The notes beneath the pieces are model-generated. The model saw only the letters and a program-made list of their open reading frames with translations, was not told the origin of the DNA and searched no databases. From positions 1 through 41,466 of the forward strand of contig JAHLWP010000038.1 of NCBI GenBank assembly GCA_019057865.1: a stretch of 41,466 bases of DNA. The letters are read 5' to 3'. The translations under genes were made by a program, and so were the position numbers. This DNA is from Promethearchaeota archaeon (GTDB taxonomy: Archaea > Asgardarchaeota > Lokiarchaeia > Sigyniarchaeales > SOKP01). Shown here in pieces: positions 1 to 41,092 of this stretch. Positions within the stretch are counted from its first letter, which is position 1. Every line of letters starts with the position of its first letter.

Positions 1-1519
1 ACTGGTTTAATCCCGAAAAAGGGAAGGCAACATGATCCTGGTTTTGTGGGTGTTGCTGTGGCAATTGGAGTCATGATAAAGCCCCCTGTCTCTGTTAACC
101 AATGTACGCGCTATGCGTCCATTTTTTGCCAGTAAGTATCGACAATGGGGCATTTCTCTTTTCCAACAACTTTGTGATACCAAGTCCAAGCCTCAGGATT
201 ATTCCCAAATACTTGAGAATTCCAAGTATTAATCGGTTCCCCGACTGTGCCTAGGACTTTTAAAGAACTTAAGTCATGTTTCTTAACTGGTTCATCACCA
301 TATCGCATTAGAGCACGTATAGCTGTAGGAGCGGTATAAATTCCCATTTGAGATTGAAATAATCTAAAATAATGAGTTACCTTATGATGTTCGACAATGT
401 CCCAAAACCTGTATCCGTCGATAGAGTAGAAAAACTCTATATCGTCTACGTCAGGATATGTTGGAACACCTTCGAACATCAAACTTGTCGCTCCATTAGC
501 TAACGGTCCGTATACTATGTAGGAATGTCCGGTAATCCAGCCTATATTTCAGCTAAACATAAGGAATTCTTATATTCATCTGCCGTACAATACCAGACAT
601 CACCTTCATGGTAATTAAATACGATTCTATGCGTAAATGACGTATATAATATATAACCTGCTGTTGTATGTTTAACACCTTTTGGTTTTCCAGTTGTTCC
701 ACTTGTATATAAAATAAATAAAGTATCCTCAGAATCCATTGCTTCAGATTCGCATTCATCGCTCATCCCTTCAATAAAATCGTGATACCAAATATCTTTA
801 TCAGTGTGGGGAACTTCTCTGCCAGATCGTTTTACTACGATAACATGCTCTATTGTTGGAACATCATCAATAATTTGAACCACATCTGCTATTTTTGAAT
901 AGAATTTCCCTGCTCTTAAGGTTTCATCGCTGGTGAATAAGAGTCGTGAGTCAGAATCATCGATTCGGCCCTTTACAGCTTCTTTTGAGAAACCACCAAA
1001 AACTATAGAATGAATAACTCCAAGGCGAGCACAAGCAAGCATTATTATTGCTAATTCAGGAACCATAGGTAACCAAATTGTTACACGATCTCCCTTTTTC
1101 AAACCAAGTTTTTTCATACCATTGGCAACTTTATTAACTTCTCTTAATAATTCTGTGTAAGTGTAGGTTTTAACATGTCCTGGCTCGTCAGCTTCCCAAA
1201 TAAGAGCCACCGTATCACCTTTTCCAGCTTTTATATGTCGATCTAAACAGTTGTAAGCAACATTTAGTTTTCCTCCGACAAACCATTTACCAGGAAACAA
1301 TTCTGTTTTTTCCCATACTTTTTCATAAGGCTCGAACCAGTCTAGAGATTTTGCTTGTTCATCCCAAAAACCTTCCATATCTTCAATTGATTGTTTGTAA
1401 AGTTTCTTATATTCTTCTAAAGACATGCCAGATTTAGCAAATTCCTTGTTTAACTTAATAGGATCAAAAATGCGTGTTTCAGTAAGAATACTTTCCATCT
1501 TTTTGTCTTCTTCAGACAT
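1..1519 (-). CDS. acs: Acetyl-CoA synthetase (AMP-forming), intron-containing; exons 580-1519, 446-547, 371-412, 232-340, 125-201, <1-94; 3' end runs off the window
   Basis: Motifs [22 protein letters not shown] and [13 protein letters not shown]. Removing five BHB introns gives one continuous frame: [60 protein letters not shown]...GEPINPEAW...DTYWQTETGG...KPGS. Confidence 0.95.
95..124 (-). other. Relaxed BHB micro-intron 5 in acs (30 nt, contains in-frame TAG)
   Basis: ggca-aa|a-aatggacgc-atagc-gcgtacatt-ggtt-aa|c-agag. Excision restores DTYWQTETGG. Boundary ambiguous by up to 2 nt (97-126 gives the same product); central helix is weak (G-U, G-U, C-G, A.G). Confidence 0.85.
202..231 (-). 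other. Relaxed BHB micro-intron 4 in acs (30 nt, in frame, no stop)
   Basis: accg-at|t-aatacttgg-aattc-tcaagtatt-tggg-aa|t-aatcct: 9-bp intron stem, central helix with an A.G mismatch. Excision restores GEPINPEAW. Boundary can slide a few nt because taat occurs at both ends. Confidence 0.85.
341..370 (-). other. BHB micro-intron 3 in acs (30 nt, in frame, no stop)
   Basis: ggtaa-ctca-tt|a-ttttagatt-atttc-aatctcaaa-tggg-aa|t-ttatacc: central helix ctca/tggg. Excision creates a TTT codon and restores KVTHFYTAPT. Confidence 0.87.
413..445 (-). other. BHB micro-intron 2 in acs (33 nt, in frame, no stop)
   Basis: cctg-acgt-ag|a-cgatatagag-tttttcta-ctctatcg-acgg-at|a-cagg: exon helix cctg/cagg, central helix with one A.G mismatch. 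Excision gives YPDVDRFW. Confidence 0.85.
548..579 (-). other. BHB micro-intron 1 in acs (32 nt, frameshifting)
   Basis: Minus strand ttgta-cggc-ag|a-tgaatataag-aattc-cttatgttta-gctg-aa|a-tatag: 4-bp central helix cggc/gctg, two 3-nt bulges, 10-bp intron stem. Excision restores GCA GAT ATA GGC TGG (A-D-I-G-W). Confidence 0.92.
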
Positions 1520-1762: not shown

Positions 1763-3046
1763 TTGATTATGGATGCTAAAAAGTTGAATGGGTATATTTC
1801 CAGATATTTAACCAAACTTAAATCAAGTGAAAACAACATCGAAGAATATTATCTAAAGAAATTGACTGGATTATCACTTGGGACTCAACTATATTGTTTA
1901 CTATCAATGTGTAAGTTGTTTGAAACTGATGAACAAAGAAATATGAGTGGAAGATTTAAACCAAATAATGTAATATTGGAACATGCAGATGTAAATCAGT
2001 TGACTAAAGAGAATATATTTGATTTGTTAAGATGCAAATAGTATAAATCTCTTAAACCACAGACTCAACAATTACATATTAGAAGAATAAGACAATATCT
2101 AAAACATTCTAAAAGAGATGATTTAGAAGAATTATTACCAAAAAAATTTAAAATTGACGCAAAACAACTGAGTAAAACTGACCTAATAACAAGAGATGAT
2201 TTAGAATTAATTTTTAAATTTAGTAATTTATGGGGAAGGACTTTAGTAATGGTGATGTATGAAGGGGCATTGAGACGAGATGAATTATTAAGTATTAGAA
2301 AGAAAGATATAAAATTTGAACGTGGATATGCTATATTAAAAATTGTTCAATCAAAAACTGCTAAAAGAGACATTCCATTAGTTGAAAGCATACCTTATTT
2401 GAAAGAATATTTTGATAATAACTATTTTGAGTCAAATGATTTAATATTTCCTTATAAAGAAGCACATTTTCTAAATATGTATCTTAATGACCTTAAAAAC
2501 AAAATAGCAAAGAAATATCCCGAATGGAAGAACAAAAAAATATATCCACATTTGTTTAGACATTCAAGATTGACAGAATTGGCTTTATCAAAACTTAATG
2601 AACCCCAATTGAGAAAAATAGCAGGGTGGACAGCAAATTCTGATATGCCTAAAATTTATTTTCATTTAGATGATAGTGATATAATTAGTATTATGACAAA
2701 TAATGCAGTACAAAAACCAGAACCAAAAAGCGTTAAATTAGTTATATGTCCCGTCTGTAATATTGAAAATACAGAGCAAAGTACTTTCTGTTGGAAATGT
2801 AATAATATACTCAATGAAGAAAAGAGAAAAGAAGCTGGAATACAATTAATTACGCAATCAGATGAAATAAGAGAACTAAAGAATAAATTGAATGGTATGG
2901 AGAAAATAATTTTAATGTTAGAGGGGTTGTATACTCATCAAATAATCAAAGATAAATACCCAGATATTGAAATTGATAAAGATATCAATGTAACAAATAT
3001 AATTACAAAAGAATTCAATAAAATGTTTGAAAAAGATAAGGAATAA
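1763..3046 (+). pseudogene. Tyrosine recombinase/integrase with C-terminal Zn ribbon, interrupted by one in-frame TAG at 2039-2041
   Basis: ORFs 1763-2041 and 2249-3046 share a frame that is open between them. Catalytic motifs YEGALRRDEL, SKT, HLFRHS, GW...MPKIYFH; CPVC...CWKC. Confidence 0.85.
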
Positions 3047-36540: not shown

Positions 36541-36768
36541 AATATCTTCTATTTAGTTAGTAGGCATTTTATTCAATTTTTTCTATATTAATATTAGTTC
36601 TTTAATTCTTTAAATATTAATATTCGTATAATTAAAATTAGAAAACGTTAACTTTATTATGAAAAAAAAGAAAATCTTGGAGAAAATATTAAAGTCTATA
36701 AGAAAAAACTTAAAAATCGTAAAATTAAAAAATCTTCCTAACTACTTAATATATGGTGAAAATTTAAA

Positions 36769-38809: not shown

Positions 38810-41092
38810 TTAAGTTCTTTTATAGATAAATCTCTCCCAGCTTTTAGTACTTGGCATCTCTAATGGCATATTTTTCCTTTTTCGAATTTCTAAAATAAGA
38901 TCTTCTTCCAAAGAAGGTGGTACTTTCTCAAATCCCTTAAATTCATAACCAAAGAAAGCTCGCCCCTGCGTTGAACTTCGAATTTCATCCGCTATCCCTA
39001 TAATTTCGGCAGCTGGAATTTGTCCTTGAATTCTTACATATTCCCTTTCAGGGATGACATTGTTTATTCGACCTCGATGGCGATTAATTATTGAATTTAC
39101 CCCCGCTTCAGTTCCTTGAGGAGTTTTTACATCTATTCGCTGGATTGGCTCATAAAGATGAGGATCGGCGTTTAACATTGCGAGAGAGAAAGCAGAATAA
39201 CTCATACTGGCAGTCTGTGCATATTGCGTATGTCTAGGGTCTTCGTGTATGACAGCGTCTGTGAACACAGCTTTAATGCCCATAGCTGGTTCTTTAGCTA
39301 TGATACATTCACTAAGCCAATTTCTAAAAGCACTCACAAGATCATTTTTTATTCTATCAAATCTTTGTAATCCAGAAGTTCCATTTACTAGAACATTTCC
39401 TTTAAAAACATCAATAATACGTCTAGCTTCTTTTGTATCCCAACCTGCTTCTTCCCTTAAAATCTGGGCACGTTCTTTTTCATTCTGTAAATCAGTAATT
39501 TTACCCTCATCAATTAATTCTTCAGTTTTTTCATCTAATGGTTCTATGTATAACAAAAGTCGATTATGAGCATTTGATGATTTGGTATGAAATTGTTTAC
39601 TTTTTGCATTAATTTTTTCTCGGTATACTATGATGGGTTCTCCTATATCAATTTTTACTTGATTGTTTATTCTTTTTGTCAAAATTTCAATTTGTAAGGG
39701 ATCGATTCCGCTAAGAATGTATTCCATTGATTCTTTATCAAGACGAAATTCTGCTGTTGGATCTGCTTGTATCCACTTCCCAACAACCTCCCCTAATTTA
39801 CCAAGGTCATGTGGATCTTGGGGTTTAATACTTCTTGATACAACAGCTTTACAAGCATAATGGATTTTTTCAAAAGTAGGGATTTTGCCAATTTCTTCTT
39901 TATCTTTTGGGATCATTTCATTATGTATAAAAGTCTCTCCAGAAGGACAAATGAATCCATATAAAGCAAAGAGATTTCCCGCTGGTATCTTAGGAATGTC
40001 CAAAAGATCTGTTATTTCCATAACACCTAATCTTTTTACCCGATTTGAAGTTCGACTTCCAAGTAGATAAATTGAGTCAGTTTGATTAAAAGTTCCAGAG
40101 AAAACGCGTCCAATCAAAGTTGCTGCATATTGACGTCTTGGGTCCAAAAATATTTTTGTAATCATCCCATATAATGGTCCGCTAGAATCACATTTTTGCA
40201 ATGATTGCCCCAGTTCTGAGTTCAAATCTCCTCCCCAGAGATGGGGAATTCTATATTTAGATGCACTAACAGGATCAGGTAGATGATCAACAACCATTCT
40301 TAACATCGGCTCATCTAATGGTAGATTCTCTCTTAACCATTCTATGTCTCCCTCGTTGTATTTAACAAAAACATCCTGAGGTTTAAGGTTTTTTTCTAGT
40401 AAGATCTCATATGTAAAACCCCACCCATGTTTGGCTGAACCACAGGCTACAGAATTCTTCGCAAAATCAACTCCCCAATTTGAACCTTCAGGTCTCACTT
40501 TCTTAATTAACTCATTGACTTCATTTGTAATTTTATCAATTCTTTCGAAAGTGTCCTTTGGACTAAGTCTTAGTTCACTAATTAATCTATCAACTTTATT
40601 TATAAAAAGGACTGGTTTACAGTATTCTTCGCCTACTGCGAGTCTAATATTAGTTTCGGTTTGCGTCATAACACCCTCAAGGGCATCAACTAGAATTATA
40701 GCACCATCTGAACCTCTGAGAGCTCTTGAAACTTCTCCTGTAAAAGAAATATGCCCTGGTGTATCATTCAATTGAAAAATGTAGGGTTCATTATCGTCCG
40801 GCTTTCTAAGGTCTTGAAATGCAAGTAAAACTACACTTGTGAAGATGGTAATCCCTCTTTCCTGCTCCTCGTCTTTCAGTAAACTAAGTATATCTTAATT
40901 TAAATCTGAATCGGTCATTTGGAGCTGGCCAGCATCCTCTTCCCTCATAAGTCCAGCTCGGCGCAGGAGATAATCTGTAGCTGTGGTTTTACCATGATCT
41001 ATGTGCGCTGTTATTGAGAAAATTCTTTTTTTCTGATATGAGCCAGAAGTGACTAACCTGGCGATCTCCTCAGGATTCTTTACCTTTACTAT
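38810..41092 (-). CDS. Elongation factor 2 family GTPase (likely the divergent paralog aEF-2p), intron-containing; exons 40904-41092 and 38810-40873, 750 aa, probable ATA start
   Basis: AHIDHGKTT, EQERGITI, DTPGH, NKVD, GRVFSG, YRE, STQGRA. Non-canonical SGIDPLQ (normally GMGELH) and HEDPRHTQ (normally HxDxxHRG). No rps12/rps7 next to it. Confidence 0.92.
40874..40903 (-). other. BHB micro-intron in the EF-2 family gene (30 nt, contains in-frame TAA)
   Basis: tcag-at|t-taaattaag-atata-cttagttta-ctga-aa|g-acg: perfect 4-bp central helix tcag/ctga and 9-bp stem. Excision gives TDSDDEEQERGITI with canonical spacing. Confidence 0.92.

Follow-up and report, generated by a model that had tools for sequence, protein, structure and literature searches.

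The acetyl-CoA synthetase (ACS) gene of this Promethearchaeota archaeon is interrupted by five short inserts, I1 to I5, which are likely to be bulge-helix-bulge (BHB) mini-introns of the ACS pre-mRNA. Three of them, I2, I3 and I4, are in frame and stop-free, a state that would be due to chance, and the frequency of lengths divisible by three (3n) would come from a single 30-nt plan. Judged from the sequence, I2, I3 and I4 are very probably tRNA-type introns unseen by gene callers. The DNA analyzed (the window, 41,466 nt) is the entire contig C82 of a genome of 4.26 Mb, 29% G+C and 87 contigs. The 5' 1519 nt of the gene occupy positions 1..1519 of the minus strand, with the start codon at 1519. 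The gene reaches the contig end at base 1, and the rest of it lies on contig C39 (24628 to 23963), joined via a 55-nt contig overlap.

Inserts were called by DNA alignment to 20 same-genus orthologues, and all five (32, 33, 30, 30 and 30 nt) were missing in 20/20. A protein search against 40 relatives gave an orthologue match of 267 nt where 360 nt are found here, within unbroken frames of about 661 aa, and the ACS gene minus the five inserts encodes an intact 660-aa protein. Four boundaries were set by orthologue alignment together with the BHB fit, all on the minus strand: I1 (548..579, 32 nt) shifts the frame and splits CTAD/IGWITGH, I2 (413..445, 33 nt) splits PDVD/RFWD, I3 (341..370, 30 nt) splits VTH/FYTAPT, and I4 (202..231, 30 nt) splits GEPI/NPEAW. 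I5 (30 nt, minus strand) is in frame with a TAG and splits YWQ/TETGG; it was placed at 95..124 by the BHB register and at 97-126 by alignment, with an identical product. The sixth intron of the window, also of 30 nt and containing a TAA, lies at 40874..40903 (minus) in the EF-2 gene (38813-41092, minus), where it splits QMTDSD/DEEQERGIT; the gene has EF-2 Pfam domains. Beyond CTAD, the first ACS ORF (542..1519) runs out of frame to its end. The second (111..482, minus, 123 aa) reads GVPTYPD..., translates through I2, I3 and I4, and stops after YWQ. The original prediction had described introns 2, 3 and 4 as 33, 30 and 30 nt long, stop-free and read through by the ORF, and each of these points was confirmed; the interval that it gave, 202-445, is bounded precisely by the I4 end and the I2 start. 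The 123-aa ORF bears out its claim that the three are invisible to annotation, and five of the six introns are indeed divisible by three, the 32 nt of I1 being the sole exception.

The geometry scored was the canonical one: a 4-bp helix, two exon bases, the cut, one intron base, a hairpin, the 4-bp partner strand, two bases and the second cut. All five ACS inserts fitted it, and did so at the sole registers from which the orthologue sequence is recovered. The exon directly upstream of each insert pairs with the 3' end of the insert to form the central helix (H), and the insert's own hairpin forms h'. The splicing endonuclease cuts after the second bulge nucleotide. The cuts implied by the 3-nt bulges give back the orthologue reading frame exactly, so that the BHB boundaries coincide with those derived from the orthologues, and the position of the cut within the bulge agrees with PMC12397907. 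I1 folds as a canonical hBHBh' (H 4/4, h 5 bp, h' 10 bp), and I3 has H 4/4, h 4 bp and an h' of 3 bp, a mismatch, then 5 bp. The central helix has three of four pairs, the relaxed form, in I2 (h 4 bp, h' 5 bp), I4 (h' 9 bp) and I5 (h 2 bp, h' 4 bp, a mismatch, then 4 bp). The outer helix h of I4 is absent in the canonical register and forms only with a widened 3' bulge (relaxed BHB). The EF-2 intron has H 4/4, h' 9 and E -8.2. BHB-constrained fold energies were -11.9, -4.9 and -13.4 kcal/mol for I2, I3 and I4, and in the same scan 0/3000, 21/3000 and 0/3000 random genome positions, respectively, were as low; by its energy, I3 thus stands out only moderately (0.7% of the null). In-frame indels of the ordinary kind that separate this genome from its congener had BHB energies of about 0 or worse. 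For I2 and I3, the predicted intron status rests on this geometry and energy, on their absence from orthologues and on the company they keep.

Short hairpin inserts within a coding sequence, missing from a conserved protein, are also the mark of programmed translational bypass, in which ribosomes hop over the insert. Bypass elements, such as that of T4 gene 60 and the byp elements of yeast mitochondria (byps of Magnusiomyces), depend on take-off and landing codons that match, and their insert is not removed from the mRNA. Two to four bases are repeated at the boundaries of I1, I2, I4 and I5, as this explanation would have it. However, the boundaries of I3 have no repeat of any kind and therefore offer no matching take-off and landing codons, and the pairing of the exon with the insert 3' end through 3-nt bulges, which suits a splicing endonuclease, has no role in bypass. 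We consider bypass extremely improbable.

Inserts at the same sites are found in relatives. The family survey covered 135 genomes, with an ACS orthologue in 96; among these 96, the stretch from I2 to I4 contains inserts in just five others. Eleven further members of the family have inserts at sites matching those found here, and the 12 intron-bearing genomes represent three genera. Site A (I1, codon 313, 32 nt) is occupied in four genomes (ours, G143, G137 and G066), site B (I2, codon ~347-349, 33 nt) in ours and G138, and site B', about 6-11 nt upstream of B depending on the register (codon 345), in G143 and G066, with 42 and 60 nt. Site C (I3, codon 361, 30 nt) is shared by ours and G143, site D (I4, codon 397, 30 nt) by five genomes, and site E (I5, codon 422, 30 nt) by all 12. 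Two further sites are site F (codon 477, 30 nt), with a stop, in G143, and site G (codon 505, 32 nt) in G137 and G138. In-frame stops are absent at sites B, B' and C and not applicable at A and G. They vary at the remaining two shared sites: two of the five genomes (G070 and G066) have a TAG at D, and stops are found in 10 of the 12 genomes at E, leaving two stop-free. With the inserts removed, the eleven other intron-bearing ACS genes each show either an intact ORF of about 660 aa or a frame that stays open as far as the end of the contig.

The hairpin interiors are almost wholly different between genomes, and the pairing is nonetheless kept. At site A, 89.5% of cells are paired versus 26-37% in slid controls, with 8 pairs changed on both sides; the corresponding values are 97.5% versus 21-55% with 7 such pairs at site D and, computed on the ten aligned of the 12 genomes, 88.7% versus 31-47% with 6 such pairs at site E. 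The helices at sites A, D and E are thus kept by compensatory change. I2 and its single homologue (G138) keep the fold, with 87.5% paired, and I3 and its single homologue (G143) reach 94%, with slid controls at 21-50% and one double change, although comparisons of two sequences are uninformative on covariation. One ACS gene in the family (L179, G143:C25:1-2222) has six inserts of 32, 42, 30, 30, 30 and 30 nt, four of them in frame and stop-free, so that an ORF caller would miss most of what interrupts it. Stop-free in-frame ACS inserts number two in G137, one in G138 and one in G066.

These comparisons bear on whether I2, I3 and I4 could be true translated insertions, or introns so often retained that an ACS isoform with three extra loops is made. 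The open frame through all three would allow it, as would the stop-free homologues at B, B' and C in G138, G143 and G066. Nevertheless, the three inserts split invariant ACS motifs, and nearly all orthologues, as well as an intronless allele from other studies, are without them. At site D, where G070 and G066 have the TAG, changes are paired across the hairpin and are not codon-like; at site E, stops predominate; and I2 to I4 have their architecture in common with the frame-breaking I1 and I5 of the same gene. Translation of the inserts is quite unlikely on this evidence. If I2 to I4 are BHB introns, as we favor, their in-frame, stop-free condition would be a chance state of a noncoding hairpin and not a selected one, since roughly 40% of randomly phased readings contain no stop and, at one and the same site, homologous introns gain or lose stops.

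The frame shift in I1 and the stop in I5 could instead mean that the ACS gene is dead and has accumulated small palindromic (MITE-like) DNA insertions that are never removed; the inserts are hairpins, and an intronless allele is present in the population. This is very improbable, given that, apart from the inserts, the ORF of about 660 aa has stayed intact in twelve genomes from three genera and that the exon dN/dS versus relatives is 0.01-0.17. Moreover, the insert ends covary with the exon in a manner that keeps the central helix, and the same element occurs in essential single-copy genes such as EF-2.

The enzymes that splicing of BHB introns would call for are encoded in the genome, namely, a pair of EndA-family ORFs (208 and 214 aa), located at C71:81890 and C69:38574, and an RtcB ligase (561 bits). 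The two EndA-family genes suggest a two-subunit enzyme, which we infer to be of the broad-specificity kind. Such an endonuclease would cut the ACS pre-mRNA in the bulges, and RtcB would join the exons. In a metatranscriptome containing part of the ACS gene, coverage was confined to positions 804-1027 and 1242-1291, outside all introns. A metagenome scan with a 20-mer across the 3' junction of I3 returned 45 matches, none of which continued into the ACS exon.

The ACS introns are recent, polymorphic DNA features and not an artefact. The intron-bearing form is present in independent assemblies of public runs from three other studies, with gapless contigs covering 256-631, and an intronless allele was also found in two of those three studies (one contig). 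The intronless contig skips 32 nt at I1, 63 nt over I2 and I3, and 30 nt at I5. It differs from our sequence at 22/1009 positions upstream of I1 (~98% identical) and at 17-19 of about 100 positions in the exon stretches that separate the introns. The same mosaic appears in comparisons with G012 (L025) and G088 (L184), where identity is 92-100% over codons 1-300, falls to 65-83% between I1 and I5 (window 97-579, codons ~313-422), and returns to ~90-100% at codons 481-560. From this drop in identity, the block carrying I1 to I4 looks as if it was imported by recombination from a diverged ACS allele. No nuclease gene was found beside the intron-bearing block. The contig break in the ACS gene (window 1 / C39:24630) lies about 95 nt downstream of I5, and the assembly graph may have broken there because the sample contained alleles both with and without the introns. 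Two fragments resembling the ACS C terminus occur on another contig (C48:37787-38053 and 36569-36733), with 91% and 59% identity to orthologue residues 570-659; they may be remnants of a second ACS copy or reflect strain heterogeneity (contamination estimate, 5%).

Intron lengths were examined beyond the window by a census in which every ORF of this genome and of a one-contig congener (G006) was searched against the other genome, without use of the BHB motif. Inserts were recorded both inside and between matches, and match ends were extended to catch short exons. The census covered 2.8 of the 3.34 Mb of G006 (84%), and it detects introns present in one genome, not those common to both. After curation, it comprised 35 introns of 26-36 nt: three of 28 nt, three of 29, 17 of 30, six of 31, three of 32, and one each of 33, 34 and 36. 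One census-recovered gene (C49:5259-6160, plus strand) has four inserts (28, 34, 30 and 28 nt) within 900 nt. The original prediction had proposed plotting lengths against the 3n expectation, and a 3n bias is present (19/35; p = 0.009 versus one third), but the excess is wholly due to 30-mers; among the other introns, 3n lengths are depleted (2/18; p = 0.03). Given the 3n share of the census, five 3n introns out of six in one window have a probability of 0.15.

The 30-mers are built alike, with 1 nt followed by a 9-bp stem with its 5-nt loop, the 4-nt helix strand and a final 2 nt. Independent introns, for example those in the window at 202-231, 341-370 and 548-579, have in common a loop of consensus RWUUC at intron positions 11-15 (TTC in 12-13/17), and GAATTC stands at several hairpin apexes. 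The shared loop may reflect common descent or recognition by some protein.

The original prediction had left two readings of the 3n bias side by side, a preferred 30-nt geometry and a tolerance of incomplete splicing. Under the second, 3n lengths would be selected, as with coupled transcription and translation an in-frame intron is tolerated when splicing fails and so persists. Besides the census excess itself, the ACS family offers some encouragement for selection: six of its eight sites are 3n, including the 33-, 42- and 60-nt inserts, and 11 of its 19 3n introns are stop-free, compared with 0-2/15 in other genes. We tentatively attribute this last difference to shared ancestry and small numbers. 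In the census, however, only 3-5 of the 17-19 3n introns are stop-free, which is not above the random-phase rate of 0.41, and 14 carry in-frame stops. An unspliced mRNA would be truncated anyway in these 14, and a 3n length therefore gives no tolerance of missed splicing.

Introns of similar size also appear to be present in tRNA genes. For seven or eight class I tRNAs, the Rfam matches are 101-104 nt long, versus 72-74 nt for intronless ones, which indicates introns of ~29-30 nt, sized to ~1 nt from the Rfam spans, in an untranslated RNA too. The genome is rated 99.7% complete, and only 28 tRNA matches were found with Rfam and 18 with aragorn, many with spans of 101-107 nt (e.g., C77:33526-33628, C39:493-595 and C23:125994-126095); its tRNA genes are heavily interrupted and under-detected. 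The aragorn intron lengths themselves were set aside as unreliable, with 18 tRNAs only and boundaries ambiguous by ~2 nt. A scan for BHB motifs across the genome, combined with a test for ORF fusion, was likewise rejected: the lengths were flat, false positives at gene junctions dominated, and there was no usable 3n excess within ORFs.

Since the excess comes from 30-mers only, the stop-free share is not above chance and the tRNA introns are of similar size, frame selection is not supported. The depletion of 3n lengths other than 30 nt and the in-frame stops leave tolerance of incomplete splicing as an unlikely source of the bias, and the sharp 30-nt mode favors the alternative that the excess would stem from one 30-nt building plan of the intron class. 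Consequently, the 3n pattern shows no translation-linked selection and is unfit as an argument on the coupling of splicing and translation. A further idea is that the 30-nt mini-introns form a size-locked mobile family, with a 9-bp stem and an RWUUC loop, that spreads as DNA in Asgard populations through recombination of intron-bearing gene blocks and whose in-frame, stop-free members are retained in some transcripts. We regard it as distinctly doubtful; if true, optional splicing would let one gene yield two isoforms, amounting to primitive alternative splicing among the archaea most closely related to eukaryotes.

As I2 to I4 behave as BHB introns and go unseen by ORF annotation, some lineage-specific "insertions" of 8-13 aa in Asgard proteins would be introns. 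How many was estimated by comparing this genome with its congener and testing each stop-free, frame-keeping insert of 24-39 nt for a BHB fold. Such a fold was found in 3-4/44 inserts of this genome, three of them in ACS, and in 0-1/41 in the reverse direction, near the expected false-positive rate. The suggestion that short Asgard insertions could be unrecognized introns therefore holds for some of them, but the effect is small.

In-frame archaeal mRNA introns are already known from cbf5, the pseudouridine synthase gene, whose pre-mRNA in Desulfurococcales and Sulfolobales contains BHB introns of 16-44 bp (Yokobori 2009, PMC2738675). Those of 33, 36 and 39 bp keep the frame and were ignored or misread by annotators (Yokobori 2009, PMC2738675); for the cbf5 intron, that paper cites Watanabe 2002 and Yoshinari 2006. 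In both genes, short known or predicted BHB introns lie at a catalytic motif within the coding sequence, some of them frame-keeping, and those of cbf5 are removed by the tRNA-splicing enzymes. Whereas in Crenarchaeota a single gene, cbf5, has a single intron whose splicing has been demonstrated by experiment, the present case would comprise five introns in an Asgard metabolic gene, known from sequence. The ACS introns also differ in being size-locked at ~30 nt, in numbering up to six (G143), and in being polymorphic between alleles that are ~98% identical in their 5' half. In the literature searched, archaeal mRNA splicing by tRNA enzymes is confirmed for cbf5 only, and our search found no description of mRNA BHB introns in Asgard protein-coding genes.

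Archaeal tRNA genes offer a second comparison: the motif and presumably the enzymes are the same, introns have been gained recently and repeatedly, and standard annotators tend to miss them, although the host RNA here is an mRNA. The tRNA genes of Thermoproteales contain multiple, noncanonical BHB introns. The tRNA introns of Asgard families have been described (bioRxiv 10.64898/2026.10.13.758758), with protein-coding genes mentioned only as neighbors by which tRNA loci were matched and no mRNA introns reported. The diverged mosaic block bounded by the outermost introns, together with the coexistence of intron-plus and intron-minus alleles, also resembles group I intron homing with co-conversion of exons. 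Unlike group I introns, the 30-nt introns neither contain nor adjoin a ribozyme or an endonuclease ORF, and the mosaic pattern alone points to transfer. With bypass elements, the ACS inserts have in common that they are short hairpins in a coding sequence, missing from the protein; I3 has no matching codons.

With ACS, a gene of central metabolism in an Asgard archaeon is predicted to have five such introns, of which three escape ORF-based annotation. Deposited Asgard proteomes may therefore contain spurious loops of 10-20 residues within catalytic motifs, which would affect alignments, predicted structures and arguments built on indels. Such introns can be screened for simply, by combining indels versus a congener with BHB-constrained folding. 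Alleles with and without the introns, together with the mosaic block, would provide a natural system for studying intron gain in archaea.

Beside the ACS gene, the window contains a phage-integrase-family gene (1763-3046, plus strand) with one in-frame TAG at 2039-2041. Its Pfam match (PF00589) falls after the TAG, and the gene could be a pseudogene, a case of read-through or something else.
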